Sequence record: NC_048178.1
Origin: Escherichia phage Sortsne
DNA length: 41,912 nucleotides
Direction: 5' to 3' (one strand)
Shown: piece after piece, positions 2,594 to 41,806 of the stretch
Layout of the letters: each line of letters starts with the position of its first letter
How positions within the stretch are numbered: position 1 is the first letter of the stretch
The notes under the pieces: model-generated
What the model saw: the letters and a program-made list of their open reading frames with translations, nothing else
Database searches by the model: none
What the model was told of the DNA's origin: nothing
Position numbers and translations under genes: made by a program

Positions 2594-3156
2594 TGTTTAT
2601 CAAGGTGAAGCGTTTTAACATGGAGTGCCTGCTGAATATCCACAAGATCGAGGCGGTGGTCCCGATGGACGACGGCAAGACGACCAGCGTTAAGGCTGAG
2701 GGCCATAGCTTCGACTGGGCGATCCCGTTCGACCAGGCTCAAGACGTCTTGATCGACTGCGCGGCCCAGGTGACGGCCCCGATCGCCTCCCGCGTGATGG
2801 CGCTGGACAATACGCTGGCACGTACCGCCCGGAGCGTGGAGGACCTGCTGGAGAAGCTGGACAGCGCCATGAATACGCCGATCATTAACTGCGACGGCAT
2901 GACGCCGGAGGAGGCGGAGCGATTCAAGTCCACCATGCGAGACACGCGCGCCACGCTGGACAGCATCCAGCCCCGGCTCGTTAGCCAGCCAGACGGGACG
3001 AAGGCGCGCCTAATGAGAGCGGAGGCTCTGCTGGCGGAGGTCCATCACGCATGGAACAACGACGCGGACGCGGCCAGCGCGATCGGCCACTACCTCGGAT
3101 CGAATATCGAAAACTTTTTGTACCCAGGCGAAAAAAAGGCTTGTGATAAAGAATAA
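2593..3156 (+). CDS. hypothetical protein
   Basis: 187-aa ORF; ATG overlaps upstream stop (TAATG), implying translational coupling. Confidence 0.5.
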   Translation: MFIKVKRFNMECLLNIHKIEAVVPMDDGKTTSVKAEGHSFDWAIPFDQAQDVLIDCAAQVTAPIASRVMALDNTLARTARSVEDLLEKLDSAMNTPIINCDGMTPEEAERFKSTMRDTRATLDSIQPRLVSQPDGTKARLMRAEALLAEVHHAWNNDADAASAIGHYLGSNIENFLYPGEKKACDKE

Positions 3157-3169
3157 ATCACGATAGTAT
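3141..3169 (+). promoter_or_regulatory. sigma70-like promoter TTGTGA-N17-TAGTAT with ATCACGA motif in spacer
   Basis: Read directly from sequence; followed by a 5' hairpin and gene 3217. Confidence 0.4.
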
Positions 3170-3178
3170 TAAGTTGTC

Positions 3179-3197
3179 GCCGGGGAATGGCCCCGGC
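3179..3197 (+). promoter_or_regulatory. 5'-UTR hairpin GCCGGGG-AAUGG-CCCCGGC (boxB-like candidate)
   Basis: Perfect 7-bp stem, pentaloop AAUGG, about 10 nt after predicted transcription start. Confidence 0.4.
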
Positions 3198-3216
3198 AAT
3201 AACGGAGATTGAGACG

Positions 3217-3456
3217 ATGGCAAAATTAACAGTACGCATCACAAACGGTCAGGAACGCGGTCGCCAGTGGAATCACCACTTTAAAGCCACATCGGGCCAC
3301 GCCACTGTTAAGCGTTACCTGGACTGGAAAGCGGCGGAACTCACAGGCGAGGAGCCGGAAGTCGAGGACTACGTGGACGAGTTCACCACACGCGGCGAAG
3401 TCGAAGCACGTCGCATTATCCATCGTAACAACCTGCGCGCCGCTGAATACTACTAA
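3217..3456 (+). CDS. hypothetical protein
   Basis: Start refined to ATG at 3217 (GGAG RBS 9 nt upstream); the track start at 3187 lies inside a perfect 5' hairpin. Confidence 0.5.
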   Translation: MAKLTVRITNGQERGRQWNHHFKATSGHATVKRYLDWKAAELTGEEPEVEDYVDEFTTRGEVEARRIIHRNNLRAAEYY

Positions 3457-3460
3457 CCAG

Positions 3461-3498
3461 CCCGGCCCCTTCGGGGGCCATCCACCCAGGAGTCGAAG
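3461..3498 (+). repeat. conserved intercistronic element, copy 1 (hairpin GGCCCC-UUCG-GGGGCC plus CCCAGGAGTCGAAG leader)
   Basis: Near-identical to 16206-16245. Confidence 0.6.
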
Positions 3499-3876
3499 AT
3501 GTCAAAAATGATCGTTGTTACCCGCTGGCCTACTGCCGCCGACGCACAGCAAGACGCGGAGCGCGTGGCCTCACTCATTCGCGCCCATTCCTGCGTCCAG
3601 TCCATGCCGATCCGCGTTAACACATACGAGCGCGAGGAGAAGCTGGGCGGCGGGTTCGGCTACGTGCTTACATGCGGCCCGGTGTCGATAGTCTGCCGGA
3701 GCCTTACACGTTACACGGCCTGCTATTCCCTGCCGGAAGGTCCACGCGGAAACCATCGGGACGAGTTCGAGGCGGTCACGGCTGAGGCGGCGATCGATGA
3801 AATGCGGGAATTTCTGGAAGCGCGGATCGAACATGCCCGGCTCGCGCTGGCCGTACTGGCCGGGCCGGACTCATGA
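3499..3876 (+). CDS. hypothetical protein
   Basis: 125-aa ORF preceded by conserved hairpin plus CCCAGGAGTCGAAG leader. Confidence 0.5.
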   Translation: MSKMIVVTRWPTAADAQQDAERVASLIRAHSCVQSMPIRVNTYEREEKLGGGFGYVLTCGPVSIVCRSLTRYTACYSLPEGPRGNHRDEFEAVTAEAAIDEMREFLEARIEHARLALAVLAGPDS

Positions 3877-4094
3877 TCCCGGCGAAGGTGCAACGGAAAG
3901 CGAAGGCGATCCTCCACCTGTACGCCCAGAAGGAGGTCCAGCCCCGCAAGCTGGCCGGAGGTCTGGGCCTCGCGCTGGAGGTCGGTTATCGCTGGCGTCT
4001 CCTGTCGCGTGACAAGGGCGCAACGTGGGATCTGGTATCACACGAGCGCTACAACAAACTAACCAGGGGCAAAAAGCCCCGCACAATGAGGTAA
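3873..4094 (+). CDS. hypothetical basic protein
   Basis: 73-aa ORF, ATGA start/stop overlap with upstream gene; Lys/Arg-rich. Confidence 0.4.
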   Translation: MIPAKVQRKAKAILHLYAQKEVQPRKLAGGLGLALEVGYRWRLLSRDKGATWDLVSHERYNKLTRGKKPRTMR

Positions 4095-4099
4095 CTACA

Positions 4100-4396
4100 A
4101 TGCAAAAATATTACTATCTGGTAGAGGCTCACGGTCGCCAGGTGCTGGTCCGCAAGGGCGAAAGCGAAGAAGATCTCCCGGCGATCCAGTTCGTGACGCA
4201 CACGGACGACGGCGCGGAAATGTCGTTCGGCCTGAATTTTGAGCCGAAGGAAGGCTCCACCGAAGAAGCCGCCGAAGCGGACCGCGATCGCGCCTTCGAG
4301 AAGGAGGAAGAACTCCGCACTATGGCCGAAGCCTACGCGGAGAAGCTGATCGGATGTGCTACCGGGTTCGACGCTTTGCGCGCTTTGCAAGGCTAA
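4100..4396 (+). CDS. hypothetical acidic protein
   Basis: ATG at 4100 with GAGGT RBS 7 nt upstream (track ORF 4025 trimmed to this start). Confidence 0.45.
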   Translation: MQKYYYLVEAHGRQVLVRKGESEEDLPAIQFVTHTDDGAEMSFGLNFEPKEGSTEEAAEADRDRAFEKEEELRTMAEAYAEKLIGCATGFDALRALQG

Positions 4397-4420
4397 TCAA
4401 AACGTTATTCCATTCCTACT

Positions 4421-4441
4421 AAGGGGCCTTTGCGGCCCCTT
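4421..4441 (+). terminator. GC hairpin (weak terminator/attenuator) upstream of holin
   Basis: AAGGGGCC-TTTGC-GGCCCCTT hairpin, short T tract. Confidence 0.3.
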
Positions 4442-4494
4442 GATTCTACGTGCTACCCTTTAGCGGTTATTTAATTGTTAAAAGGGATCAGGCA

Positions 4495-4851
4495 ATGTCC
4501 GAACATACGACGCTCTGGCAATTGTTCCAGTTGTACCGGGTGGAGTTGGGTTATTCATTCATCGCGGCGTCTGTCGCGGTATTCCGTCACTGGCAATTAC
4601 GCCACCCATTCCGCGATATCGTAAGCGGCGGGGCCATCTGCGCGGCGGTGGCGTTCGGGATGAATAACATCCTGTCATTCTTTGGGGTCGATCATGGTAC
4701 GTGGGGTTATCTGGCGTCCGTGTTCCTGGGTTACGTGGGCGTGGAGACGGCGCTCGACTGGGCCAGCGAAAAGATCCCTTTCCTGAAAAAAATCCGCGCC
4801 ACCCCGGCGCATACTTCACCAGCGGAGGATCAGACCGATGGCAAAATTTAA
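4495..4851 (+). CDS. putative holin
   Basis: 118-aa protein with hydrophobic segments and charged C-terminus, immediately upstream of and overlapping the endolysin gene; position in lysis cassette. Confidence 0.5.
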   Translation: MSEHTTLWQLFQLYRVELGYSFIAASVAVFRHWQLRHPFRDIVSGGAICAAVAFGMNNILSFFGVDHGTWGYLASVFLGYVGVETALDWASEKIPFLKKIRATPAHTSPAEDQTDGKI

Positions 4852-5311
4852 GCTAAACGAACAGCGCCGCGCCTTTCTGGACGCGATCGCCTACTGCGAG
4901 GGGACCGACAACGGACGCCAGCAAACGCGAAACCACGGTTACGACGTGGTGGTGGGCGGCTCCCTGTTCTCCGACTATTCGAAGCATCCCGATCGCCTGG
5001 TGCGCCTGCGTCCGGGCCTCTCCTCCACGGCTGCTGGCCGCTACCAGTTGTTAAGCCGTTATTACGACGTGTACAAAAAACAGCTTGGCCTCCCGGACTT
5101 CGGGCCGGACAGCCAGGACCAGATCGCGCTCCAGCAAATCAGCGAGCGTAAAGCGCTGGAGGATATCGACGCGGGCCGGATCGAGTCTGCCGTGGCGAAG
5201 TGTAACAAGACGTGGGCCAGCCTGCCCGGCTCCCCTTACGGTCAGCATACCTACAGCATGGCCGTATTTCTGGAGCAATTCCGCAAGGCGGGCGGGAAGG
5301 TGGCCGCATGA
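4838..5311 (+). CDS. endolysin, lambda R-type lytic transglycosylase
   Basis: 157 aa; strong resemblance to lambda R as recalled (FLDAIAYCEGTDNGRQQTRNHGYDVVVGG...AGRYQLLSRYYD...WASLPG). Confidence 0.9.
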   Translation: MAKFKLNEQRRAFLDAIAYCEGTDNGRQQTRNHGYDVVVGGSLFSDYSKHPDRLVRLRPGLSSTAAGRYQLLSRYYDVYKKQLGLPDFGPDSQDQIALQQISERKALEDIDAGRIESAVAKCNKTWASLPGSPYGQHTYSMAVFLEQFRKAGGKVAA

Positions 5312-5829
5312 TCGCCGCCCTCCGGCTGTTCCTCTCGACTCACTGGCGCTTAGTGCTGCTGGCCGTTGTCGTGCTGCTGGCGCTGGGGGGATCTTTCTGG
5401 GCGGGCCACGAGTGGAGCGATCGCGCGTGGTCCAAACGCTGGGCGCAACGGGACGCGAACGACTCCTCCCAGGAAGCGAACGCACAAGCCGCCGCCCGTA
5501 TCATTGAACAGGGGCGAAACATCGCCCGCGAGGAGTCCGTAAAATATGCGAACGAACAGGCCGCAAAAGCTCGCGCCGCTGCTGCTGCTTCTGGTGCTGC
5601 CCTTGATCGGTTGCTCGAACGAGCCAGCAAGGAAGCCGCCCGACGCGAAGCCGCTGATCAGACCGCTGCCCTCGGAAGGGCGTCAGGGGAACAGACCGCC
5701 CGAATGTATTCCGACTTGCTCCGACGGACTGGAGAAGCTGCTCGACGGTATGCTGATATAGCGGAGGGGGCGATCACCGCTGGGGAGGTATGCGAAAGGA
5801 ATTACGACGCCGTGGAGCGTCAGCAATGA
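5308..5829 (+). CDS. i-spanin (Rz-like)
   Basis: N-terminal TM anchor then Ala/Arg/Glu-rich coiled-coil-like periplasmic region; directly after endolysin; contains embedded lipoprotein ORF. Confidence 0.7.
   Translation: MIAALRLFLSTHWRLVLLAVVVLLALGGSFWAGHEWSDRAWSKRWAQRDANDSSQEANAQAAARIIEQGRNIAREESVKYANEQAAKARAAAAASGAALDRLLERASKEAARREAADQTAALGRASGEQTARMYSDLLRRTGEAARRYADIAEGAITAGEVCERNYDAVERQQ
5546..5761 (+). CDS. o-spanin (Rz1-like), embedded in Rz in alternate frame
   Basis: 71-aa ORF wholly inside Rz; signal peptide with lipobox LIGC; proline-rich mature part. Confidence 0.65.
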   Translation: MRTNRPQKLAPLLLLLVLPLIGCSNEPARKPPDAKPLIRPLPSEGRQGNRPPECIPTCSDGLEKLLDGMLI

Positions 5830-5858
5830 GAAAGGGGCCTTGCGGCCCCTTTTTTTAT
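5829..5858. terminator. bidirectional intrinsic terminator between lysis cassette and Ig-like gene
   Basis: AAAGGGGCC-TTGC-GGCCCCTTT stem-loop followed by T7, A-rich on the other side; convergent gene ends. Confidence 0.8.
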
Positions 5859-6625
5859 GCTGCCGGATTAACCGTAACAGTACAGTGAATGGATTCGACC
5901 GTTTTCGGGGGGTTGGTGTTGCTGCTGGTGGCTACGCACCAGTATTCCCCGGCATCACCAGCGACCGGGGACGCTTTGGTGTAGGTCGCGGAGGTCGCCC
6001 CGGAGATCGGCGCGCCGTCCTTGTACCACTGGTAAGAGTACGGAGCGAGGCCCGTCTGAGGGTTCGCGGCCACTACCAGGGAGGCGGAGGTCCCGACGGT
6101 CCACGTCGCGCTCGCGGACAGGTTGGTGGACAGCGAGATCGCGACCTTCGTCCTCACGCGCTGAGAGTCCAGCGTCTGCCCGATCGAGTCGGTGATGGTC
6201 ACGAAGTAGTCCGCGTTATGGGTCGCTGCGGTGTAGTTCGAGATCGTCAGCGTGTCAGTCGTTGCGCCGCTGTAGCCGTTGGCGTTGGTGACGTTGCTCG
6301 TCTGCCCGCCGGAGATTTTCTTCCACTGGTAGGAGTAAGGAGGAACGCCATCAGCGGCCACCACTTTAAAGTCCTTACTGGTGCTAACCGGGACGTAAGT
6401 CGCGCCAGCGTCGCCAGCGGCCACGCCGGGGAGATCGGTCGTGAACTTGAGCGGCTTCGCCAGGTTCGGGTCGTACTCCATGTAAAACATACCAGTGGGA
6501 TCAAGCCCGGTCGGCTCGTCAGCCAGCCAGATCACGTCCTGCTGAGGGACTTCCGACGGGTCGGAGATCCGGGTGACTTTCCAGCCCAGGAGATCCGGGC
6601 GGTAGTAGCGATGCCAATAACTCAT
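5855..6625 (-). CDS. Ig-like domain protein (two tandem Ig-like repeats)
   Basis: Start refined to ATG at 6625 (GAGGA RBS); repeated PPYSYQWKK / APYSYQWYKDG motifs typical of bacterial Ig-like domains. Confidence 0.55.
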   Translation of the reverse strand: MSYWHRYYRPDLLGWKVTRISDPSEVPQQDVIWLADEPTGLDPTGMFYMEYDPNLAKPLKFTTDLPGVAAGDAGATYVPVSTSKDFKVVAADGVPPYSYQWKKISGGQTSNVTNANGYSGATTDTLTISNYTAATHNADYFVTITDSIGQTLDSQRVRTKVAISLSTNLSASATWTVGTSASLVVAANPQTGLAPYSYQWYKDGAPISGATSATYTKASPVAGDAGEYWCVATSSNTNPPKTVESIHCTVTVNPAA

Positions 6626-6699
6626 AATTTTGTCCTCATGGTGCGCCGTGTTATAGTTCCCCGGCATTGTAGATCATCTTTGAGCCGTAAACGAAAGGA

Positions 6700-6726
6700 G
6701 CCGCATTTTAAGCGGCCCTTTTTTTT
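6700..6726 (+). terminator. plus-strand-oriented terminator-like hairpin with T8
   Basis: GCCGC-ATTTTAA-GCGGC then CCTTTTTTTT; lies between two minus-strand genes. Confidence 0.35.
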
Positions 6727-6827
6727 CATAGTAGGGTAGTAACCCCGAAGCCAATTAAACCCCATACGGCGGCACTGGCTGCGATTACGCCCCAAATTAC
6801 ATAGCGGTGTCCGCGTAAGTCTTTCAT
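6726..6827 (-). CDS. small single-TM peptide (33 aa)
   Basis: Below track cutoff; ATG overlaps upstream stop (TGATG), GAGGGG RBS; translates MKDLRGHRYVIWGVIAASAAVWGLIGFGVTTLL. Confidence 0.3.
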   Translation of the reverse strand: MKDLRGHRYVIWGVIAASAAVWGLIGFGVTTLL

Positions 6828-7216
6828 CAGAATTTCCCCTCTTTCTTGAATTTTGCGATCCGCCCACGGAGAGCGGCGACGGTTTTCCCCAGCCAGTTAG
6901 CGACGTGCTTATGGGTCAGCCCGTCCGGCACTATGACGCCATGAGGTACGACGGCCACCAGTTCGTCCTCGTCCTGCTCCGTCAGTAACCCCTCATACCA
7001 GCGGGCCAGCTTGCGGTCCTCCTCCGTGGTCCACAGGGTGTACGTTTTACTATACGCCAGCGAGACGCCCAGGTGGTGGGCGCGGACCTGCATCTGGCGG
7101 AAGTTGCGCCCGATCTTTTTGGCGAGGTCCTTCGGCGGCATGGTCCCGGCGAGGCGCTCCAGTTCGGCGTCCTGCTCGTCTGTCCATCCGATAATCTTTG
7201 CGGTGACTTGGCTCAT
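6827..7216 (-). CDS. putative DNA-binding protein with two W-T-x-E-E-D repeats (GcrA/SANT-like)
   Basis: 129 aa; IGWTDEQDAELERL and LWTTEEDRKLARW repeats; assignment from motif recollection only. Confidence 0.4.
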   Translation of the reverse strand: MSQVTAKIIGWTDEQDAELERLAGTMPPKDLAKKIGRNFRQMQVRAHHLGVSLAYSKTYTLWTTEEDRKLARWYEGLLTEQDEDELVAVVPHGVIVPDGLTHKHVANWLGKTVAALRGRIAKFKKEGKF

Positions 7217-7756: not shown

Positions 7757-7789
7757 CTTTCTGTCTCCTCGTGTTGGTGTGATAAAGAA

Positions 7790-7818
7790 TATAACAAAGG
7801 ATAAGTTTACCCGCAAGA
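7790..7818 (-). promoter_or_regulatory. sigma70-like promoter TTGCGG-N17-TATATT, flanked by ATCACGAAA and TTATCACA motifs
   Basis: Minus-strand reading; immediately downstream of an intrinsic terminator. Confidence 0.45.
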
Positions 7819-7837
7819 GGTTTTTTAATTATTTCGT

Positions 7838-7864
7838 GATAAAAGAGAAAAGGCCCCGGAGGGC
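7838..7864 (-). terminator. intrinsic terminator within early minus operon
   Basis: GGCCCTCCGGGGCC hairpin followed by TTTTCTCTTTT on minus strand; promoter 7790-7818 follows. Confidence 0.5.
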
Positions 7865-10307: not shown

Positions 10308-10456
10308 TTTGTACTCCAGTTGTTGTCTACGTGGTAAAGTTAACGGATTCGTGATTTTATTTCAAGTCAATTTGATGATAAATTATTAAATGTCTCTTTC
10401 GTCTGGTTCCCAGGCGTTACAAATTTAGCGCCGCTGGTATCTCGTGCGCTCCCATC

Positions 10457-11323: not shown

Positions 11324-11346
11324 ATCACGAAAGCGTTAAGAAACAA
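11319..11346 (-). promoter_or_regulatory. candidate divergent promoter TTGTTT-N16-TATAGT for primase operon
   Basis: Minus-strand reading; -10 overlaps the plus-strand -10 (TACTATA palindrome). Confidence 0.3.
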
Positions 11347-13399: not shown

Positions 13400-13846
13400 A
13401 TGGGAACGATTAACAAAAAAGTGGAGTTCTGGCGCGAGTTTTACCCGGAGCATAAGGCGACCTACAGCCCGAAAGAGGAGGTAGAACAGAAGATCACGGC
13501 GTCCCACATCCAGTACAATTACCCGGACCTTCTGGCCTTCCATCCGGTCAATGAGTCCGGCGGGTCCGGTGATGCCGCCTACGGGGCGAAGTTAAAGGCG
13601 CTGGGCCGACTGGCCGGGATCTCTGACTGGGTGATCCTGGAGCCGCGCGGCGGGTATGGCTTCGCGCTGATCGAGTTGAAACGGAACGACCGGAGCAAAT
13701 CGCGCCTTAACCCGGAGCAAAAGGAGATCCTGGAGAAAGCGCGGGCGCGTGGTGGCTGGACGGCGGTCGCATGGGGTGCGGACGCCTTCGAGGTCGCGCT
13801 GGATTATTATCTCTCTCTACCGCTTGCAAATATCACGAAAGCGTGA
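13400..13846 (+). CDS. VRR-NUC domain nuclease
   Basis: ISDWVILEPRGGYGFALIELKRND matches the PD-(D/E)XK core of VRR-NUC proteins. Confidence 0.7.
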   Translation: MGTINKKVEFWREFYPEHKATYSPKEEVEQKITASHIQYNYPDLLAFHPVNESGGSGDAAYGAKLKALGRLAGISDWVILEPRGGYGFALIELKRNDRSKSRLNPEQKEILEKARARGGWTAVAWGADAFEVALDYYLSLPLANITKA

Positions 13847-13852
13847 TTTAAT
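13824..13852 (+). promoter_or_regulatory. promoter TTGCAA-N17-TTTAAT with perfect 16-bp palindrome ATCACGAAAGCGTGAT in the spacer
   Basis: Palindrome at 13832-13847 overlaps the VRR-NUC stop codon; precedes exonuclease gene. Confidence 0.45.
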
Positions 13853-13887
13853 TACTCTCACGTTATCCACACGAGAGAGACAAAATT

Positions 13888-16198: not shown

Positions 16199-16205
16199 TT
16201 AACTA

Positions 16206-16245
16206 ACAGGCCCCTCCGGGGGCCAGATCCTCCCAGGGGTCGAAG
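16206..16245 (+). repeat. conserved intercistronic element, copy 2 (hairpin GGCCCC-UCCG-GGGGCC plus CCCAGGGGTCGAAG leader)
   Basis: Near-identical to 3461-3498. Confidence 0.6.
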
Positions 16246-16686: not shown

Positions 16687-16711
16687 CGTATATCACTAAT
16701 TAATTAATAAT
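16683..16711 (+). promoter_or_regulatory. promoter TTGACG-N17-AATAAT upstream of Cro-like HTH gene, with TATCAC motifs
   Basis: TATCACTAATTAATTAATAATCACGG spans spacer and start region. Confidence 0.45.
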
Positions 16712-16729
16712 CACGGAGACGTTAACAAA

Positions 16730-16958: not shown

Positions 16959-17204
16959 GTGGAGAATAAAGCCCAGCCTATGACCGGGGCCGATATCAAA
17001 GGCTATCGAACATTGAACGAAGCCGAAAAAAAGGCAATGAATGACCTGAAAGAGACGAGCCGCTATTTTATCGCCACGCTCGATCAGTTCCCGGACATTC
17101 TGCCGGACGTCGATCGCCGCTGGTTAGCTCGCGCCCGTACTGCAATGCAAGACGCTTGCATGTTTGGCTGTCGCGCGGTAGCAAGACCGGACGATGATTG
17201 TTAA
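16959..17204 (+). CDS. hypothetical protein
   Basis: GTG start with GGAG RBS 8 nt upstream; ends just before bidirectional terminator. Confidence 0.4.
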   Translation: MENKAQPMTGADIKGYRTLNEAEKKAMNDLKETSRYFIATLDQFPDILPDVDRRWLARARTAMQDACMFGCRAVARPDDDC

Positions 17205-19651: not shown

Positions 19652-22600
19652 TTATTGCTGCTCGTCGGCTGCTGCTGCCCTGCCTGCTCCGCCACCTCCG
19701 CCAGCAAGGAAGCCCACGATCCCGGCCCGGCTGATCGCGGCCTGCTCGTCCGGCGTCATGGAGGCGATCAGCGCCTTCCACTCCGGGGAGTTAGCGGCGG
19801 CTTGTTCAGCCTCATTGACGAAGGTCCGGCCCGCCGGGGTTAGCTTGCCGGAACTCTGCGCCGCTGCCGCCTGGAGAAGTTTATTAAAGTTTCCCCCAGA
19901 AAGCACGTTATCCGCCAGCACAGATCGAGGGACGCGGGTCGCCCGGCTTGCTGCCTGCGCTGCGGACAATGCGGCGTTACCTGCCGGGCCTAACGTGTAC
20001 AGCGCGGCGGCATGTTTCCCCAGGAAGCCAGCGGCCCCGTACAGCTTGGACATTACGCCACCAGCGCCGGGATCGTTAAATCGCTTCATAAACTCACTGA
20101 TCGATCCGGTCGAGGTGGTGAATCGCTGGGCGCGATCGATGCCCTGAGCCACGCGGTAAATCTGCATAAAGCGGCGTTGTTGCTCGCGGGGTAAATGCTT
20201 CATTACGGAGCCTAACGTCCCGTTAGCCTGGGCGGTGCGATACCAGTCCACAAAGCCCGGAATGGCGAAGTTATTCCGCGCGCTACGTGCGCCCAGGGTA
20301 CGCTCCAGCGCGTTAGCCACTACGTCGGACTTGAGGCTGTCCGGGGTTGCGGCCATCAGCTTGTCCCAGTCCCTCGCGCTGCCGCCCTTCTTGCCCAGGT
20401 TCAGGATCGCACTCTGCACTTTCCCGGTGATCGAGTTGTCGAGGTTTTTCCCCAGGACTTCGAGGGCCTGAGTCTCCAGGTCCTTACGGCGTTTAACAAG
20501 CTGTTTCCCCACATTCCAGTCGTCCGCCGCGCCATACTGGGCCGCGACTCGCTCCTGGTCGTCAGTCAGGCGGGCATAAAGCTGTTTAAGCTGCGCCGGG
20601 ACTTCATCCTTAAACGGGCCGTTTTTCTTGTTCAGCGCCTCGCCGACCTGCTTCCGAAGGGTGTCCAGTCGGGCGTAAGTCGGGATCGTCGAAACACTCT
20701 GATCAGGGAGTCCCGTCACTGGGTCCACCTTCCCAGGCTTCGGAGCCATCCAGTCGAGCGCCTTTTTCTCTGCTGCGGAAAGGTACTCGTCCCCGCCTAA
20801 CTCGTCAGCCTTCGCCGTCAGATAATCCACGGTGCTGTCCGGCCTTACTTCGGCGTTGCGGGGGATCTTGGCGCTCACGGCGTTATAAGCCTTTTCCGCC
20901 TCGTCGCCCAGTCCGTCGATAATGGCGCGGGTGCGGGCGGCAAACGCCTGATCGATGGTCTGCGCGTTCATGCTGGTCATGCTGTCGATCAGATCGTCGG
21001 CCTTCTCGCTTAAACGCGCGATCCCGTTTAACTGCTGCGTTTCCAGGTTGGAGCCTTTGGCGCTAACAAGCTGCTGGATCGTGCTGCGGAAATTGGTATC
21101 ACGAGCATAAGCCGCCGGGGTCAGTTGGTCCTCAATCCCCAGATCGCGGGCGGTTTTCATCAGCTTTTTATCGACGTCGGCCATGTTCGCCAGATCGATC
21201 GCCTCGTCAGACGCGCGGAGCGTCTCACCGTTCGCGCCCTGTACGTTACGATCGGGGGTGAGTCGGAACTTGCTCGCATCACGCGCCACAGCGTCGGAAA
21301 TGCCCGCCTCGGACGCCTGGGTGGATCGTGCTGCATCTGCCGCCGCGTCTGCACCAGCCCCACCAGCGGCCCCAGCGCCTTCACCAGCGCCCCGGACGGC
21401 CTGCCACAGCTTACCAGCCCCGCCGATGATAGCTCGGCCCACAGCCTCGCCAGCGGGCGCTAGTGCGATGTTGGTCAGCGTCTCCTCCGGGTCCCCACGG
21501 CCAGCGGCCACCGCACCAGGAACGGCGCGAGCCGCCGGAGCGGCTACCCAGCGTTGGACGGCATCGGCGACGCGGGTCCCGAATTGAGCGACGTCCGGCG
21601 CGTCACGCACGATCCCCATAAGCTCCTCGGCTGCTGCGGCCTTACGCGGCCCCGGCAACGGCGCGAGCATATCGCCGATCAGGGTCCCGATCTGCGCGTA
21701 TTTGTCCGTCGGCCCCTCAAATCCGGGAATCCCCCCAGGGGTGATAGTCGGCGCTTGGGTGCTCTCGTCCACAATCCCCAGCCCCTTCCCGGCATCGGTC
21801 ACGGCGTTGGAGATCATGTTCGCCAGCGAGATCGGCGTGTTCAGGAGGTCGATCCCGGTCTGGGCCACGCCTCGCGCTGCCTGTTCGACGCTGCCGCCTA
21901 ACTTCCGCCAGTTTTCGGCGGCTTCGGCGTTAGGGTCGGTTTGTCCGGGGAGATTAGCTCCGCCCGGCTCTCCGTTACCGTTCGGCGCTGCCGCCCCTTG
22001 TGCGCCATCAGATCCCGCTTGATTAGGTGCATTGCCAGCGGCGACGGCTGCGACTTGTTGATCGGCCCCTCCGGCTCCGGCGGCTGCTCCATCTCCTCCA
22101 GTTCGGGGGGAATATTCCCCGAATTGATCGAATACATTACCAGACTGAGACGAGCCGCCAGCGCGGGCGCTGGTTGCACGTTGAACAGGTTCAGCGCTAC
22201 CGCCAGGCCCTCGGCCAGTCCACTCATTAAAACGTTCATCCACATATTGACGCCCCTCCGGGCCAGGTTGTGCCTGTCCCGCGATCTGTTTATCTACATT
22301 GCCGGGGCCGTCGTGGTAAGCCTGGAGCGCGAGGCCCCAGTCTCCGTAACGCTGGTACATCTGGGAAAGGTACTGCGCCCCGGCGTCAGCCTGGAGCGCG
22401 GGATCGCGCTGTAGCTCGTTCCAGTTGTACCCCATACCCTCCGCCGTTGGCCTCATGACCTGAGTCAAGCCATAAGCGCCAGCGGAAGAACGCGCGGAGG
22501 TCGGATCAGCTTCGCCGCCCGTCTCCTTGCTCGCCAATGCCTGCATGATGCCAGCGGGTAGTCCCCATTTAGCCCCGGCGCTCTCAAGTAGATCAGCATA

Positions 22601-31403: not shown

Positions 31404-31453
31404 CGTTTTGTCTCTCTCGTTGGTTGGTTAGGCCCCCACAGGGGCCGGGTTAG

Positions 31454-31897: not shown

Positions 31898-31937
31898 CTT
31901 GTGCTCCGTTGTTTATCACTGTTTCGTTGTTTCTTGT

Positions 31938-31956
31938 GACAAAGAATAGCCCGGAC
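31938..31956 (-). terminator. hairpin after portal gene (attenuator or processing site)
   Basis: AGCCCGG-CAAGT-CCGGGCT followed by AUUCUUU on minus strand. Confidence 0.3.
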
Positions 31957-36858: not shown

Positions 36859-36862
36859 GTCG

Positions 36863-36891: not shown

Positions 36892-37186
36892 GCGATCCCT
36901 TGCCGGGGGAGAGGTCCGGGCATAGGTGCATATTCTCCGGGGTGATAGGCCAGGGGCTAACCGGGTGACGGTACGCCAGGGAGTCGGCCTTCTTGGCGAT
37001 GTACCCCCGGACCTTCCCGCCGCCGCGCTGGCTGCTGTATGCCGCACAGATCACGCACGAGCCGTTAGTGGTGTATCGAGTGAAGTTGCCGGGGTGCTCC
37101 TTGCACTCCCCGCCGTGGTACGTCTTGCGCTTGAGGAGAAGGGCCTCCGCCCTGCTCCGCGCCACTGAGCGCTCTTTCGTCTCCAT
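36881..37186 (-). CDS. hypothetical Cys/His-containing protein (candidate late regulator)
   Basis: 101-aa ORF coupled to upstream gene (TGATG); 3' end overlaps a promoter-like -10 and precedes a terminator; coding status uncertain. Confidence 0.3.
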   Translation of the reverse strand: METKERSVARSRAEALLLKRKTYHGGECKEHPGNFTRYTTNGSCVICAAYSSQRGGGKVRGYIAKKADSLAYRHPVSPWPITPENMHLCPDLSPGKGSPWT

Positions 37187-37689
37187 CAGTCACAGCCCCC
37201 GGAGGAGGACGATCCGCTGTCGCTGCTGCCGGAGTCGTAGCTCCCGCCGTCGTCGTGGCTGGAGTGGTGGCGGCTGCTGCTGTCGTCGTGGCTGCTGGAG
37301 TGGCTGCGGTGGCTGCTGCTGTCCCAGTCCGCCCGGTCGCTGGTGTGGCAGATCGGATTGAGTGGCGAGGTCAGGGAAAGCGGGTTCAGCGGGTCGAGGT
37401 CGTCGCCCTGGTTGCGGAGTGCGCGCCGGGTCGGGTCGCTGCGGAGGGCGTTCGCCTCACGTGCTGCGGACTTGTCGGCCATGCTGCGGGGAGCCTGCAC
37501 GACCTTAGCCTGGGGACGGTTCGCCATCGTCTCGATCATGCGCTCCATACGCGCCTTACCGCTTAGGACGTCCTGGACGCTGCGCTGGTTGCAGTCGTCA
37601 CAGATCCAGAATACGTCCGCGCTCTCGGTCCATTTGCGCGGGGCCTGCTTGCCGCACGTGCGGCACTCTTTGAAACGTTTAAGGGACAT
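37186..37689 (-). CDS. zinc-ribbon protein with His/Ser/Asp-rich low-complexity tail
   Basis: Start refined to ATG 37689 with conserved CACGAGAGAGA leader; CRTCG...(17)...CDDC ribbon; C-terminal SSSHRSHSSSHDDSSSRHHSSHDD. Confidence 0.45.
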   Translation of the reverse strand: MSLKRFKECRTCGKQAPRKWTESADVFWICDDCNQRSVQDVLSGKARMERMIETMANRPQAKVVQAPRSMADKSAAREANALRSDPTRRALRNQGDDLDPLNPLSLTSPLNPICHTSDRADWDSSSHRSHSSSHDDSSSRHHSSHDDGGSYDSGSSDSGSSSSGGCD

Positions 37690-37757
37690 TGTGATCTCTC
37701 TCGTGGGTGGAAACGGCCCCAGCATAGCGCCGGGGCAAACATCATGCAAGCGTTAAA

Positions 37758-38039
37758 TTATGCGGACAATACCCACCAGCCCATAGCCACGATAAGCGCG
37801 CCGAAGCCGATCCACTTCCACGGCAACGGCTTAACGTCTGCGAGCGCCGCCATCAGTCCGGGAGGGCCGGAGATCTCGACGCCGTTCGAGGTGGTCATAG
37901 TCCCGAATACGCCCTCCGCCTGTAGCCTGCGCTTTACCGCGTCAAGGTCTACGGGCGGGCGGTTGATCCAGTCGCGGACCTCTCGATCCGGGATGTACCC
38001 CGGAGGGAATGCTCGATCCCCCCAGGTCCCGGCGGTCAC
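37758..38039 (-). CDS. hypothetical protein with C-terminal TM anchor
   Basis: 93 aa, C-terminal WKWIGFGALIVAMGWWVLSA hydrophobic helix. Confidence 0.4.
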   Translation of the reverse strand: MTAGTWGDRAFPPGYIPDREVRDWINRPPVDLDAVKRRLQAEGVFGTMTTSNGVEISGPPGLMAALADVKPLPWKWIGFGALIVAMGWWVLSA

Positions 38040-38986
38040 TTTACGCGGCGGAAGCGCTTAACCTGTTCCCACGCGACGACGCTCACCTGGAGCGTGTTAT
38101 GGCGTCCGCCTACCGTCTCGATCTCCACCATATCGTCGTCGTTCAGGAGGGGCGGGCGGCGGTCCTTGTCGAAGCGCTGCCACACGATCCAGTCCTCGCC
38201 CTGTTCGCCAGTCTGCGGACGGTCCAGCAAGGCGTCCAGCAATGCCTCCGCCGTACCGATAGTGATCCGCCCGCCTCGGTACTGCTCGATCAGTTGGCGG
38301 GTCTGGTCGGAGCGCTGGATGTGCCAGCGGAGGCTCTGCTCCGTCTCCTGGTGGACGCGCTCGGCGAAGTGGGCCACGCGCTCCGGGTCGGTGTCGCAAC
38401 GGGTCAGGCGCTCGCGGGCTTCGTGCTCGTTAACAAGCTGCTGGAGGCCGCGCGTCGGCATCTTGAAAACGTTCCAGTTATACGGGACGCGCTTCTCGTC
38501 GCAAGCCTTCACGTAACGCTCCAGAAGGTCCACGCGGCGCTCGGCGTCCTTCGCTGCCTCGGCGTGTTTCTCGCTGGCTTCGGCCATTGCCACCAGTTCG
38601 CGGGCCTTCTGCTCGGTCCATGCGATGGTCTGCGGCTTGCCGTCGATCGGGCGGAAGGTTGGCGGGACGTGTAGCGCGCCGACGATCTCGCGGATGTTCA
38701 CGTAATACCCGCTCATCCGGTGCTCCGCCTCGGTCATGGTCTGGAGTTGGCGCTCCAGTGCGCGCTCGTGGGACTTGTCGCGCCACTTCTCCGACTCCTT
38801 GAATACACGCTCCAGCGCGTCGAGGGACAGGAGGGGGAGGTGGTGCGGGGCCAGGTCCGGCTCGGCCTTAAAGCCGTGTTGCATGGCGTCGGTAACGTCG
38901 GCGATCCAGTTGGCGCGCTGCTGTACCTGGGTGCGGGCTACATGGTCCATCAGGGCGTAAGCCACGCCGCTGTCGTGTGAGTTCAT
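38036..38986 (-). CDS. hypothetical protein
   Basis: 316-aa ORF preceded by hairpin plus CCAACCAACGAGAGAGAC leader. Confidence 0.5.
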   Translation of the reverse strand: MNSHDSGVAYALMDHVARTQVQQRANWIADVTDAMQHGFKAEPDLAPHHLPLLSLDALERVFKESEKWRDKSHERALERQLQTMTEAEHRMSGYYVNIREIVGALHVPPTFRPIDGKPQTIAWTEQKARELVAMAEASEKHAEAAKDAERRVDLLERYVKACDEKRVPYNWNVFKMPTRGLQQLVNEHEARERLTRCDTDPERVAHFAERVHQETEQSLRWHIQRSDQTRQLIEQYRGGRITIGTAEALLDALLDRPQTGEQGEDWIVWQRFDKDRRPPLLNDDDMVEIETVGGRHNTLQVSVVAWEQVKRFRRVK

Positions 38987-39032
38987 AGTCTTGTCTCTCT
39001 CGTTGGTTGGCCCCGTTGCCGGGGCGGTTGGA

Positions 39033-39257
39033 TTAAAAGCCGTCGTAGTAGCCAGGGAGGGCGCGGAGTTGCGCTTCGTCGTCCACCAGGTCCCACTCTG
39101 TCGGCTCCAGGTCGATCGTTACGCCAGCCAGCCCGTCGCGGTCCGCGAGTGCTGCGTGGATCATCATGCCAGCCACCAGCGGGGAAGGGTTGCCGCTTGC
39201 CATCTGGCGGGCGATCTCTGCCTGAATCTCTGCGAGTGTCTCGGCTAATGTTTTCAT
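39033..39257 (-). CDS. hypothetical protein
   Basis: Start refined to ATG 39257 (AGAGGA RBS) downstream of promoter 39304-39332 and its 5' hairpin. Confidence 0.4.
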   Translation of the reverse strand: MKTLAETLAEIQAEIARQMASGNPSPLVAGMMIHAALADRDGLAGVTIDLEPTEWDLVDDEAQLRALPGYYDGF

Positions 39258-39275
39258 GCTGCGGTCCTCTGGTTG

Positions 39276-39294
39276 GGCGGGACCATTTCCCGCC
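39276..39294 (-). promoter_or_regulatory. 5'-UTR hairpin GGCGGGA-AAUGG-UCCCGCC (boxB-like candidate)
   Basis: Perfect 7-bp stem with the same AAUGG pentaloop as the hairpin at 3179-3197. Confidence 0.4.
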
Positions 39295-39303
39295 GTCCAG
39301 ATA

Positions 39304-39332
39304 AATATAACGCTATCGTGATAATCATGCAA
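39304..39332 (-). promoter_or_regulatory. promoter TTGCAT-N17-TATATT with ATCACGATAGCG in spacer
   Basis: Minus-strand reading; followed by 5' hairpin with AAUGG loop. Confidence 0.45.
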
Positions 39333-39340
39333 GCATTATT

Positions 39341-39613
39341 TTATTCTTTATCATCCCATCGATCGCGGTCGAATAGTACGCCCTTTCGGAAGTCGTCCCA
39401 CGCGAAGTACGGCCACACGACCAGGGACAGCGACGCGAACAGGACCACGATCAGCGCCACGAGGAAGCCCAGAAGGGGGAGGAGGGCCGGAGGGACTGCC
39501 CGCGCCTCACGTGCCAGGCTGCGGCCCAGGAACGCGCCCGCGCCCTGGTATGCCTGCATTACGATGTAAGTCACGCCCAGCGCGACGTAAGAGAGTATCA
39601 GTTCGATAAGCAT
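39341..39613 (-). CDS. small membrane protein
   Basis: 90 aa, two predicted TM segments. Confidence 0.45.
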   Translation of the reverse strand: MLIELILSYVALGVTYIVMQAYQGAGAFLGRSLAREARAVPPALLPLLGFLVALIVVLFASLSLVVWPYFAWDDFRKGVLFDRDRWDDKE

Positions 39614-39840
39614 CAGTAGATCCCATTGGTGAGTAAGAACAGCCGCCCGTTTTGCATCAGGCGGATCATGTCGCTGGTCCCGCGCCCCATCGGGACCGGG
39701 TAGAGTTTGCCGTCCTCTGCGCGCATATACAGGCGGTTACGGACGCGCCAGCCCTGGAGGGTGTGGCCCCGGCGTCCGTACTGGTCGCGCTTCACGTCCA
39801 CGATCCGGCAATAGATCGCGCGCTCCTCGATCTGCATCAT
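39613..39840 (-). CDS. hypothetical protein
   Basis: 75-aa ORF with start/stop overlaps on both sides. Confidence 0.4.
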   Translation of the reverse strand: MMQIEERAIYCRIVDVKRDQYGRRGHTLQGWRVRNRLYMRAEDGKLYPVPMGRGTSDMIRLMQNGRLFLLTNGIY

Positions 39841-40217
39841 GCGAACCTCCGCGCGTGTCGTGGGAGGGTGTCCAGGTCGTGGTCCCAGCGGACCGCCTCG
39901 CGTGGCTTGCGGTAGCCCTCGTAAAGCATCTGGATCGCCGCCATCGGGTCGGACGGGAGCGACTCGTGGACGTACAGGAGGAACTCGCCCCGGCGTCCGT
40001 TGTGCTGCATACCGAAGCCGCTCCGGTGGTAGTGCTCGACGTTCAGCGTCGGCTCCGCTGGTGGCATGGAGGGGAACGGGTCGATCGCCACTGGTGAGGG
40101 CATGGCGAGGACGGGCTGGCCGTCCATGACGCTGACGCGCTGGCCGTCGTGCGGGCCGCCAATGAGTAGCGCCTGGACGTAGGTCGCTGGTGTGGTGTTG
40201 GTCATTCGAAGCTCCAT
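39837..40217 (-). CDS. hypothetical protein
   Basis: 126-aa ORF; alternative ATG at 40205 gives ATGA coupling to the small ORF upstream. Confidence 0.4.
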   Translation of the reverse strand: MELRMTNTTPATYVQALLIGGPHDGQRVSVMDGQPVLAMPSPVAIDPFPSMPPAEPTLNVEHYHRSGFGMQHNGRRGEFLLYVHESLPSDPMAAIQMLYEGYRKPREAVRWDHDLDTLPRHARRFA

Positions 40218-40336
40218 TCCGCGAAAGCGCGGCGTAAGCCCATGCGGGCGTTAGTGATGGCTACCCACTGATCCAGCGCGTCGGGCTGGCGGTGGTAGTG
40301 GTTCGTTATGGCGATGGCGATCGCGCTGCGGTCCAT
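40202..40336 (-). CDS. small ORF (44 aa)
   Basis: Below track cutoff; GGGAGG RBS 5 nt upstream of ATG; stop overlaps downstream ATG (ATGA). Confidence 0.3.
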   Translation of the reverse strand: MDRSAIAIAITNHYHRQPDALDQWVAITNARMGLRRAFAEWSFE

Positions 40337-40379
40337 CAGATCCTCCCAGGATGCCCGGCTCTCGACCGGGCGGTGGTGT

Positions 40380-40694
40380 TTACAGTGCTGGCAAACTGCC
40401 GACGTCGCGGGATGCCTTGAGCGCGTTCCAGTGGTCGAACGGTGACGGCTCGCGCCACGAGTGATCGCACTGGCCGAAAGAGAGGTGTCCGCACTCCAGA
40501 AGCGGGCCAGTGTAGCCGATGCGGGTTAGCTCGCTGTTCGGGACTTCCATCAGCGTGTCGAGGGTCCAGCGGTTGTCCTCGCCGTAGCGGTACGGCTCGG
40601 CCTGGACACGGACCGGGAAGCGGACGGACTCGAAGCCGCTCGGAAAGTAGCCGCGCCCGTAGCTGTCGGCGTTCAGAAGGATGATTGTTTTCAT
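40380..40694 (-). CDS. hypothetical protein
   Basis: 104 aa, preceded by GGCCCC-TTGC-GGGGCC hairpin plus CCAGCGAGAGAC leader. Confidence 0.4.
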   Translation of the reverse strand: MKTIILLNADSYGRGYFPSGFESVRFPVRVQAEPYRYGEDNRWTLDTLMEVPNSELTRIGYTGPLLECGHLSFGQCDHSWREPSPFDHWNALKASRDVGSLPAL

Positions 40695-40739
40695 GGTGTC
40701 GTCTCTCGCTGGTGGTGGCCCCTTGCGGGGCCGTGTGGG

Positions 40740-41024
40740 TTATGCTGCGGCCAGTTCGCCGCCGATGAATGCCAGGACTTCGCGGAGGTGCTTCTCGTCG
40801 CGGATGGTGGCCGGGAGTTCTTCCTTGATGGCGCGATCCAGGTAGATATTGCCATTCCATGTATAGGAGCCGTTAGGGTTGACCAGATAGGAGAACATCC
40901 ATTCGCAATCGTTATCCGCTTCCCACACGCACAGGATGATCTTGCCGTCGTTGTCGATATCTTCCAGGGTCACGTCGAGGTTACGTTTTGCTGCGAAGGT
41001 TTTTGTAGTTTTGGACAGGTTCAT
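40740..41024 (-). CDS. hypothetical protein
   Basis: Start refined to ATG 41024 (MNLSKTTKTF...) with conserved CCAGCGAGAGAGAC leader. Confidence 0.4.
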   Translation of the reverse strand: MNLSKTTKTFAAKRNLDVTLEDIDNDGKIILCVWEADNDCEWMFSYLVNPNGSYTWNGNIYLDRAIKEELPATIRDEKHLREVLAFIGGELAAA

Positions 41025-41136
41025 GGCTTCGTCTCTCTCGCTGGTGGGCTGCACCGTTGCCGCCCTTGATGTGATAAAGAATATCTCAGAGGCGGCAAGG
41101 TGTCCAGCAAAATATCACGAAAAGATTAAATTATTT

Positions 41137-41325
41137 TCAGGCCAGATCGTCGTCCACCTTCCGGCCCAGTGCTGCCACGTCGTCCTCGGTCGCCGGACGG
41201 TAGCCGAAGCTATGCCCGATCCGCTTCGCTATGGCCTGCGCCTGCTTCTTGTGGAGGGTGACGCAAATCAGCGCCCCGGTAACATCGACCACGGCGTGGG
41301 CCGCGTTCAGCGCTTCGTCTTTCAC
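41137..41325 (-). CDS. hypothetical protein
   Basis: 62-aa ORF, ATGA-type overlap with upstream gene. Confidence 0.35.
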   Translation of the reverse strand: MKDEALNAAHAVVDVTGALICVTLHKKQAQAIAKRIGHSFGYRPATEDDVAALGRKVDDDLA

Positions 41326-41567
41326 AGGTCGGCCTCCTTGTCCTGCCGCTTGCTCTCCTCCACTGCCTCCCGGCGCTTCTGGTCCATCTGCGCCACGAAT
41401 CCCTCCACGGCCTGGGTGGCGAGTCCGGTCGCCTGGTTGTGGCTGAATCCCTTTTTCCGGTAGCGGTCGTAAGCCGACTGGAAAAGCGTCGCCCGTTGCT
41501 GCGGGCCTACATACATATGCGAGAGGTCCACGACGTCCGCCGCCTTCTTCTCCTGCTGCTCTTTCAT
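41322..41567 (-). CDS. hypothetical protein
   Basis: 81 aa, strong GAGGAG RBS 6 nt upstream of ATG. Confidence 0.45.
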   Translation of the reverse strand: MKEQQEKKAADVVDLSHMYVGPQQRATLFQSAYDRYRKKGFSHNQATGLATQAVEGFVAQMDQKRREAVEESKRQDKEADL

Positions 41568-41605
41568 CTCGTTCTCCTCGTTTGCTCGTCGCCGTAACGA
41601 ATCCG

Positions 41606-41806
41606 TTACAGTCCCAGAATGTTAAACACGATCGCCGCTAACAGTACGATGCCAGCGCCGTAAACCGTGAAGCACATCAGCAATAAATTCCACTGGCCGA
41701 CCTCCTTCCGGTACTCGCTGATCGTCTCCGGTTCGGTCCGTCCCCTTGCCTTCCGGTCGGGGAATTTAATCACGTTAATATTAACCTCTCTTTCATCACG
41801 AATCAA
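41606..41806 (-). CDS. questionable small membrane-protein ORF
   Basis: Track ORF begins with TTG and has no RBS; region is dense in operator-like motifs; an AAGGAGG RBS sits further in, in another frame. Confidence 0.2.
   Translation of the reverse strand: MIRDEREVNINVIKFPDRKARGRTEPETISEYRKEVGQWNLLLMCFTVYGAGIVLLAAIVFNILGL

Follow-up and report, generated by a model that had tools for sequence, protein, structure and literature searches.

A dispersed 16-bp pseudo-dyad at predicted promoters of Escherichia phage Sortsne, a probable operator of a small XRE-family protein

The operators of phage lambda are 17 bp long, conform to the consensus ATCAC-N5-GTGAT (half-site TATCACCGC, the outer part of which matches (T)ATCAC), and are gathered in two tripartite arrays, OL and OR, that flank cI and cro. 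The C1 repressor of phage P1 is a large protein that recognizes an asymmetric 17-bp site and maintains the plasmid prophage. CylR2 of Enterococcus faecalis and the C proteins are dimers of 66–80 amino acids whose targets are inverted repeats in the promoters of their own genes, the C-boxes being of the GACT/AGTC type. Here, we describe a dispersed repeat in the window analysed, which is the complete genome of Escherichia phage Sortsne (41,912 bp; PMC7552041). The repeat is a 16-bp pseudo-dyad, ATCACG-N4-CGTGAT, that is real, non-random, conserved and associated with promoters, and that we read as the probable operator of a 75-amino-acid XRE-family helix-turn-helix (HTH) protein encoded by the phage itself. 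Sortsne belongs to a group of high-GC podophages with a P22-like virion module, whose members related to it are described as lytic; the closest deposited genomes (approximately 79–81 per cent identical) are those of IME279 (Klebsiella), sortkaff (E. coli), Kc237 (Kosakonia), and the Murrayvirus phages IME_EC2, Lumpael and KMB41.

The likeness of the Sortsne repeat to the lambda operator is limited to half-site letters, and the repeat falls outside the lambda operator family. A first-pass annotation of this genome had equated its half-site, TATCAC, with that of lambda; the letters ATCAC are indeed common to both, but only 6 of the 12 sites have the leading T, the others having A or C. From position 6 onward, the window half-site reads G-A-A/T where that of lambda reads C-G-C, and the arms are spaced as ATCAC-N6-GTGAT at every dyad site, compared to N5 in lambda. 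With the lambdoid Cro/CI circuits (lambda, 434, P22), Sortsne shares a small HTH protein and, by prediction, dyad operators of 14–18 bp overlapping sigma70 promoters, with pairs of them at key promoters, as well as autoregulation. Instead of two tripartite arrays, however, it has single or paired sites at about nine separate promoters; its XRE gene is not located beside a PR-like promoter; and no CI partner, divergent cI/cro switch or integrase was found. The absence of an integrase and of a CI-type repressor, already remarked in the first-pass annotation, extends to all window proteins scanned and to the annotations of the relatives.

Like P1 C1, the Sortsne protein would be one phage regulator serving many single or paired operators at separate transcription units, but it is a protein of approximately 70–75 amino acids with a dyad site, and no prophage or plasmid state was detected. 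The nearest solved structures to the XRE protein are CylR2 and the C proteins C.BclI, C.AhdI and C.Esp1396I, whose control extends to one or two promoters in a host operon, whereas Sortsne carries about 12 putative operators; the C-boxes are also unlike the Sortsne site. The Aca autorepressors resemble the Sortsne arrangement in that a small HTH gene lies beside a variable anti-defence gene (here of the Acb2/Tad1 family) and inverted repeats cover its own promoter. However, an Aca regulator lies downstream of the anti-defence gene, whereas the Sortsne XRE gene lies upstream and sites are present at about nine other promoters. In the lytic Caulobacter phage phiCbK, the XRE-family repressor TgrL recognizes a motif with one strong and one weak half-site; TgrL is an early gene product, its main targets of repression are host genes, and paralogues of it exist in the host (PMC10688885). 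The Sortsne sites, by contrast, lie on the phage's own promoters, and only five clusters of XRE homologues exist in the protein database searched.

In the aligned window sites, the left half ATCACG is nearly invariant and is followed by a variable 4-bp centre, and the right half is often weak: it reads CGTGAT at 13832 and AATGAT at 41795, and CGTTAA, CGTTAT or nATTAA at the other sites. The shared core is ATCACG followed by N6 and TTAA, TTAT or TGAT. T13 and A15 of the right half are invariant in the window and mirror A4 and T2 of the left half, and the centres of the half-sites are 11 bp, or about one helical turn, apart. In Murrayvirus, the same motif is a clean dyad, ATCAYK-N4-MRTGAT. Every position listed in the first-pass annotation carries an ATCAC(G/T)-type site, although the description given there, ATCACGA(A/T)AGCG followed by TTAA at no fewer than nine sites, has to be loosened. 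The literal 12-mer ATCACGAWAGCG occurs only three times (11324 on the plus strand, 13832 on the plus strand and 39311 on the minus strand), with TTAA directly after the copy at 11324 alone, and at two mismatches it is only weakly enriched (15 observed versus 7.3 expected). We therefore replaced the 12-mer by ATCACG-N6-T[GT]A[AT] and by a weight matrix. The site at 13832–13847 had been called a perfect 16-bp palindrome; it consists instead of 6-bp inverted arms around a non-palindromic 4-bp centre.

Motif counts far exceed those expected for the base composition. In the intergenic DNA (3,243 nt, 49 per cent GC), ATCACGA occurs 8 times versus 0.34 expected and ATCACG-N6-T[GT]A[AT] 11 times versus 0.03 expected, and neither count was reached in any of 2000 composition-matched simulations. 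Genome-wide, ATCACGA is found 17 times (5.3 expected), and coding DNA shows a weak excess of the motif, two-fold at most. An unsupervised expectation-maximization (EM) search of the intergenic DNA recovered the motif as a palindromic matrix that ranked second, after terminator hairpins. A weight matrix derived solely from the sites of relatives and then run on the window, hence out of sample, produced 16 matches of at least 14 bits compared to 0.35 expected. A scan for perfect-dyad k-mers did not flag ATCAC-N6-GTGAT in the window, because most right halves are degenerate; it picked up the dyad TAGCA-N5-TGCTA in other genera, and the GTAA-N8-TTAC signal that it also returned is scattered and was dismissed as meaningless. 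Application of the EM motif finder to Skarpretter, Kc166B and IME_EC2 was uninformative, as it collapsed onto low-complexity or hairpin motifs.

The pseudo-dyad overlaps seven sigma70-like core promoters, including that of the XRE gene, and at two others it is located about 51 bp upstream (Table 1), which bears out the reported location of the sites in or next to such promoters. The predicted promoters have -35 and -10 hexamers of the sigma70 type with spacers of 16–18 bp. A consensus scan finds P16683, P41106 and P31971, as well as a register at 10381; P3141, P7816, P10365, P11346, P13824, P39332 and P41806 were identified by eye, and all of these are conserved among the relatives. Paired sites are present at three promoters, and both sites near -51 directly follow terminators. 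The sites do not always read in the orientation of the genes, as had been claimed: those at 41114, 41769 and 41795 read on the plus strand among minus-strand genes, although orientation means little for a pseudo-dyad. Three sites had not been listed before, namely, the second site at P39332, a weaker candidate at 37741–37756 and a decayed one at 31915–31930. Taken together, the variable placement, the occurrence of both orientations and the overlap with core promoters are the signature of repressor operators, and they fit neither a promoter element nor an activator site of fixed position.

Table 1. Putative operators, predicted promoters and candidate regulators in the Sortsne genome, with TAGCA dyads of two related phages. 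Sites are 16 bp long; centres are given in promoter coordinates.
Feature	Position	Strand	Sequence	Score (bits)	Centre	Context and conservation
Site	3157–3172	+	ATCACGATAGTATTAA	18.5	~-11.5	Over spacer end and -10 of P3141; kept in IME279 and sortkaff
Predicted promoter P3141	3141–3169	+	TTGTGA-17-TAGTAT			Upstream of gene starting near 3217; read from sequence; 8/12 matches, below consensus-scan threshold; TATAGT in IME279 counterpart
Site	7825–7840	-	ATCACGAAATAATTAA	25.4	~-51.5 from P7816	Immediately past terminator hairpin; 16/16 columns invariant in 4 Sortsnevirus genomes
Predicted promoter P7816	7788–7816	-	TTGCGG-17-TATATT			Operon 7750 to 6827; conserved
Site	10340–10355	-	ATCACGAATCCGTTAA	22	~-17.5	In P10365 spacer; in every Sortsnevirus genome examined
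Predicted promoter P10365	10337–10365	-	TTGAAA-17-TAACTT			dUTPase/methylase/RusA operon; TATGTT in relatives; alternative consensus-scan register at 10381
Site	11324–11339	+	ATCACGAAAGCGTTAA	21.5	-19.5	Divergent primase/helicase region, within primase promoter spacer
Predicted primase promoter P11346	11319–11346	-	TTGTTT-16-(TGa)TATAGT			TATAGT conserved in relatives
Best dyad	13832–13847	both	ATCACG-AAAG-CGTGAT	23 and 20.7 (per strand)	~-16.5	P13824 spacer
Predicted promoter P13824	13824–13852	+	TTGCAA-17-(TGa)TTTAAT			exoVIII/Erf/SSB genes
Site, called weaker	16692–16707	+	ATCACTAATTAATTAA	23.4	~-18.5	In spacer of XRE promoter
Site	16710–16725	+	ATCACGGAGACGTTAA	15.1	~-0.5	Over -10 and start region of XRE promoter
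Promoter-like site P16683	16683–16711	+	TTGACG-17-AATAAT			Adjoins XRE gene upstream; consensus scan, 10/12 matches
Site	39307–39322	-	ATCACGATAGCGTTAT	22.4	~-17.5	Spacer and -10 of P39332; kept in IME279 and sortkaff
Second site	39324–39339	+	ATCATGCAAGCATTAT	16.9		Abuts 39307–39322; over -35 of P39332; also found in EM search
Predicted promoter P39332	39304–39332	-	TTGCAT-17-TATATT			Head of long minus-strand gene block
Site	41114–41129	+	ATCACGAAAAGATTAA	20.6	~-50.5 from P41106	Directly after terminator; kept in IME279 and sortkaff
Promoter-like site P41106	41078–41106	-	TGGACA-17-TATTCT			Consensus scan
Site	41769–41784	+	ATCACGTTAATATTAA	15.9	~-5.5	Over -10 and start of leftward promoter; kept in IME279 and sortkaff; equivalent ATCACGTT half-site at same place in IME_EC2 and KMB41
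Dyad	41795–41810	.	ATCACGAATCAATGAT	26.3	~-31.5	Over -35 of leftward promoter; conserved in six relatives
Predicted leftward promoter P41806	41778–41806	-	TTGATT-17-TAATAT			Block of small genes
Candidate weak site	37741–37756	+	ATCATGCAAGCGTTAA	13		Overlaps start codon; 16-mer conserved in Murrayvirus except last base (T for A)
Decayed site	31915–31930	+	ATCACTGTTTCGTTGT	12		Just downstream of P31971; perfect dyad at equivalent position in IME279, just downstream of head-gene promoter
Promoter-like site P31971	31943–31971	-	TTTACA-17-TATTCT			Consensus scan
XRE-family HTH protein, 75 amino acids	16730–16957	+				Proposed binder; true start may be Met5 or Met6
Helical protein p6827, 129 amino acids	6827–7216	-				Alternative DNA-binding candidate; phrog_323 'transcriptional regulator, D5-like', 1e-16
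TAGCA dyad, IME_EC2	60, 4743, 7053, 28252, 36215, 37523
TAGCA dyad, Skarpretter	1, 3967, 24176, 26480, 35076, 35712, 36885

Two other features accompany these promoters. The spacer of P31971 is at the same time the stem-loop of the terminator that follows the portal gene (AGCCCGGCAAGTCCGGGCT), so that terminator and promoter are superimposed. A second repeat, GTGA(T/C)AAAGAATA, is present on the plus strand at 3143–3155, 7779–7791, 31936–31948 and 41071–41083 and on the minus strand at 39342–39353, with four exact copies of its 12-mer core compared to approximately none expected. Read on the opposite strand, it supplies the -10 hexamer TATTCT and then TTATCAC, which begins a stereotyped leader (..CACACCAAC..GAGG..ATG). 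Skarpretter has a related repeat, TATAGTTATCTCACACCAAC.

In Sortsnevirus and Murrayvirus, orthologous promoters retain the sites while the flanks diverge. Among seven genomes, the dyad at the exoVIII promoter (13832) has 11 of 16 columns invariant versus 22 of 91 in the flanks, and 15 of 16 columns are invariant in the XRE-promoter site at 16710. The primase/helicase region contains a dyad in every Sortsnevirus and Murrayvirus genome examined. In Sortsne, the strong half of this dyad is on the opposite side relative to that of the relatives, with a register shift of 1 nt, a pattern that resembles site turnover under selection. Skarpretter belongs to a more distant genus with only 40–50 per cent protein identity; its related dyad, TTCAC-N6-GTGAA, has 9 matches (0.37 expected) and is again located at the primase and exoVIII promoters. 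The recognition helix of the XRE protein also differs by genus, being ILQQRLSCYENG in Sortsnevirus, MI(A/P)HQLSRYENG in Murrayvirus, and IAERQLSRYENQ in Skarpretter and C130_2; the last of these accompanies the TTCAC dialect.

The first-pass annotation had named the XRE protein as one of two HTH candidates, and it is the better one, being the sole Pfam-recognizable sequence-specific HTH protein among the small open reading frames (ORFs) scanned. It matches HTH_3 (PF01381; E = 1e-13, 51.5 bits versus a cutoff of 23) as well as PHROG repressor and regulator families. Its AlphaFold2 model (pLDDT 85.7) comprises four helices and paired terminal strands, and a Foldseek search with this model returned a probability of 1.00 for CylR2, C.BclI, C.AhdI, DdrO, SinR and P22 c2. 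The best full-length match is the dimeric repressor CylR2 (TM 0.80/0.91), terminal beta-strands included; the HTH core matches C.BclI, C.AhdI, DdrO, SinR and P22 c2, with the C proteins at 30–31 per cent identity. The 434 repressor domain is also among the fold matches, whereas lambda CI and Cro are absent from both the 16 PDB sequence matches and the top 50 fold matches.

Orthologues of the XRE protein were detected by tblastn in 9 of 9 relatives. In C130_2, the orthologue is unannotated, lying between annotated genes at 20475–20663 on the plus strand with 46 per cent identity over 63 amino acids. The five homologue clusters come from a database of 5.8 billion proteins and are all on contigs of approximately 23–42 kb, one being named as the XRE protein of IME_EC2; a scan of IMG/VR for more diverse XRE loci returned the same genera and nothing else. 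The gene is situated at the end of the recombination operon. In its promoter, the 21-nt block AATAATCACGGAGACGTTAAC is invariant in 6 of 7 aligned genomes and has one substitution in Kc237. Just downstream of it is a second GGAG followed by an ATG, and one XRE homologue starts at Met6; the block is therefore probably a promoter/operator rather than a ribosome-binding site. Directly after the XRE gene lies a gene of the Acb2/Tad1-hairpin family (16959–17204, plus strand; PF24729, E = 5.8e-16), a family of sponges of anti-CBASS/Thoeris signalling nucleotides. This slot varies among relatives, which have a RyR-domain protein, a DUF2829 protein or nothing in it.

From these observations, we propose an autoregulated XRE repressor, dimeric and CylR2/Cro-like, that has the motif as its operator and would use its approximately 12 dispersed sites to occlude RNA polymerase, and we assign this reading a probability of roughly 60 per cent. 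That the motif is a protein operator of some kind is very probable. Under the proposed mechanism, the XRE protein would bind the 16-bp pseudo-dyad as a dimer, and its binding at the -35 hexamer, the spacer, the -10 hexamer or the start site would block the host RNA polymerase at sigma70 promoters. Since two sites cover the promoter of the regulator's own gene, negative autoregulation would result. Accumulation of the protein would turn down the leftward small-gene operon, the primase/helicase pair, the recombination operon and the dUTPase/methylase operon, and would also lower expression of the unit starting near 3217 and from the promoter at 39332. The single regulon suggested in the first-pass annotation survives in that one sequence-specific regulator is the best reading of the data; the identity of the binder, its repressor function and the reality of the predicted promoters are what we infer from the sequence.

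Several points weigh against this proposal. Repression of nearly every promoter would leave late expression unexplained, given that P39332, which carries a site, is upstream of structural genes and that, in IME279, a perfect dyad follows closely after the head-gene promoter. The two sites centred at -50.5 (41114) and -51.5 (7825) are outside of the core promoter, several of the promoters read by eye fall under the threshold of the consensus scan, and the publications consulted on this phage group yielded neither a promoter or operator analysis nor transcript data. Most window sites have a single good half-site. Moreover, TTAA, which recurs in the right half, might be an element in its own right: no ATCACG sites are present in Kc166B, but this phage carries AGTTAAC, and 9 of the 11 genome-wide copies, counted on both strands, are intergenic (e.g. 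11324, 11336, 12444, 14846, 17159 and 40347), one of them at the position orthologous to the window CGTTAAG upstream of the helicase gene. Finally, the co-variation of recognition helix and operator is qualitative only, because the helices of Murrayvirus and Sortsnevirus differ and yet their half-sites are very similar.

The same sites might be operators of a different binder, such as p6827, another small phage protein without a recognizable domain, or a host factor, although we consider this unlikely. The many small early ORFs without a detectable domain leave room for such a binder, and a non-dimeric protein would go well with the marked asymmetry seen at most window sites, whereas the clean Murrayvirus dyads with their 11-bp spacing fit a small HTH dimer. 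For p6827 speak its assignment to phrog_323 and its conservation in most relatives; however, tblastn found no homologue in Skarpretter, which carries 9 dyad sites, and the model of p6827 has no significant fold match. The GcrA-like label given to this protein in the first-pass annotation also lacks support, as no GcrA match was found in Pfam (E ≤ 0.01), no sequence match in PDB (E ≤ 5), and the best Foldseek E-value was 0.31, to the unrelated FNR. With regard to a host factor, a literature search for the ATCAC-type dyad retrieved nothing relevant, and no E. coli factor is known to have a TCAC-N6-GTGA consensus. In CRP sites, the arms are in the opposite order (TGTGA-N6-TCACA), and the spacing of the IHF site (WATCAANNNNTTR) does not fit. 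Among the host look-alikes, CRP and IHF were rejected on arm order and spacing, respectively, and the DnaA and Fur boxes as partial local matches only. It is quite unlikely that the XRE protein binds these sites but acts both ways, repressing at core sites and activating or insulating near -51, or that it is mainly an Aca-like autorepressor of the XRE/acb2 unit. The two sites that lie upstream of a core promoter and directly after terminators would agree with the former, and the Acb2/Tad1-family gene in the variable slot after the XRE gene with the latter, but a centre near -51 is not a usual position for activation (compare the class I spacing of CRP), and the many sites outside the XRE/acb2 unit point to a broader regulon.

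Very unlikely, in our view, is that ATCACG plus TTAA forms a promoter-specificity element, recognized by host RNA polymerase acting with a phage factor much as in the T4 MotA/AsiA system, and that it defines a temporal promoter class. Almost every predicted phage promoter has the motif, 8–9 sites share one fixed spacing from ATCACG to TTAA, with TTAA sometimes beginning a -10-like TAnnnT, and the sister genera carry an activator-like dyad near -42 at five of these promoters. However, site positions with respect to the -10 extend from about -51 to -0.5, both orientations are represented (41114, 41769 and 41795 versus the rest), the promoters have ordinary -35 and -10 hexamers at 16–18 bp spacing, and the clean Murrayvirus palindromes argue for a dimeric binder. 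TTAA was also rejected as a fixed -10, since TAnnnT occurs at the fixed offset in only 5–6 of 11 sites, versus about 3 expected by our own estimate, and three of those face the wrong way. Least probable of all, to the point of being hardly credible, is an origin of the repeats without regulatory role, as remnants of duplicated promoter cassettes or as a compositional accident of AT-rich intergenic DNA. Several promoters do share TATTCTTTATCAC and the CACACCAAC leader, so part of the similarity is inherited. Nonetheless, the absence of comparable counts from the simulations, the stronger conservation of the sites than of their flanks, the maintenance of the primase/helicase site through sequence turnover and the enrichment of a related dialect in a genus as distant as that of Skarpretter all stand against such an origin.

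The sister genera carry a different signal at some of the same promoters. A perfect dyad, TAGCA-N5-TGCTA, occurs 3–7 times per genome in Murrayvirus, Skarpretter and C130_2, compared to approximately 0.01 expected, and a variant of it is present in Kc166B; none was found in the window or in the other Sortsnevirus genomes. The cleanest of these dyads end 22–23 nt upstream of a TATAGT-like -10, have their centre near -42 and lack a proper -35 at 17 bp, a layout that, by its geometry, is of the activator type. Four of the promoters with a TAGCA dyad are orthologous to P3141, P7816, P39332 and P41106 of the window (genes 3217, 7466, 39033 and 40740), and P10365 is the probable counterpart of a fifth, which precedes the dUTPase operon. 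Their Sortsne-group versions have a canonical -35 and an ATCACG-N6-TTAA site instead. An ORF of 77–82 codons without a Pfam match (gp03 of Skarpretter, 989–1237, and gp13 of IME_EC2, 5518–5751, both on the minus strand) is found in exactly the genomes with the TAGCA dyad plus Kc166B and is absent from all four Sortsnevirus genomes compared, and its product is a candidate binder of this dyad. The joint absence of the TAGCA dyad and of this ORF in Sortsnevirus, where a -35 and an XRE operator take the place of the dyad, suggests a swap from positive to negative control. We raise, as a tentative and somewhat doubtful scenario, that Sortsnevirus was rewired in this way, with the TAGCA control exchanged for XRE operators and the regulon expanded from about 5 ancestral sites to about 12, becoming a genome-wide negative governor.

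The dispersed operators, together with RepA and a ParE-like gene, had suggested a phage-plasmid or carrier state, which we rejected, as no plasmid or prophage relatives were found. A search of 5,426 complete E. coli genomes for prophage copies had no match, a search of PLSDB for plasmid copies matched an SSB fragment only, and RepA is at most 28 per cent identical to plasmid helicases. The ParE-like toxin domain protein has 73 amino acids (3873–4094, plus strand; PF24732, E = 7e-19), and the 125-amino-acid ORF upstream of its gene (3499–3876) could be its partner. Scans for Rfam families and tRNAs were both empty. An intercistronic repeat occurs at 3457–3498 and 16199–16245 (plus strand) and at 31404–31453 and 38987–39032 (minus strand); in it, a GGCCCC-loop-GGGGCC hairpin that lacks a T-run is followed by a conserved stretch for ribosome binding (CCCAGGrGTCGAAG or AACCAACGAGAGAGACAArAC) and by an ATG, and the unit may serve in mRNA processing or stability. 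A perfect match to the DnaA-box consensus, TTATCCACA, is located in the exoVIII leader (approximately 13866–13874, plus strand) and is flanked by the inverted repeats CTCTCACG and CGAGAGAG. Just downstream of repA, at the 'ends' of the genome (65–95), a C7-TAAA-G7 hairpin between TATGATA repeats, which is conserved in Kc166B (approximately 45–75), may be a terminator or have a role in packaging or at an origin.

Although an HTH repressor placed over sigma70 promoters is a textbook mechanism, the proposed control circuit is new for this phage group, and the sites and predicted promoters collected here constitute the first regulatory map for Sortsnevirus, Murrayvirus, Skarprettervirus and Hungariovirus, the genera of high-GC P22-like lytic podophages, some phages of which are under consideration for phage therapy. 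A defined 16-bp operator, a 75-amino-acid candidate binder and about 10 promoters make a compact, directly testable system, from which phage engineering might also gain an orthogonal repressor/operator pair. The sister genera, with another dyad at the same promoters, provide by contrast a natural case of regulatory turnover. If the rewiring took place, the XRE regulon would govern a strictly lytic phage and would also control its anti-CBASS sponge gene, acb2.

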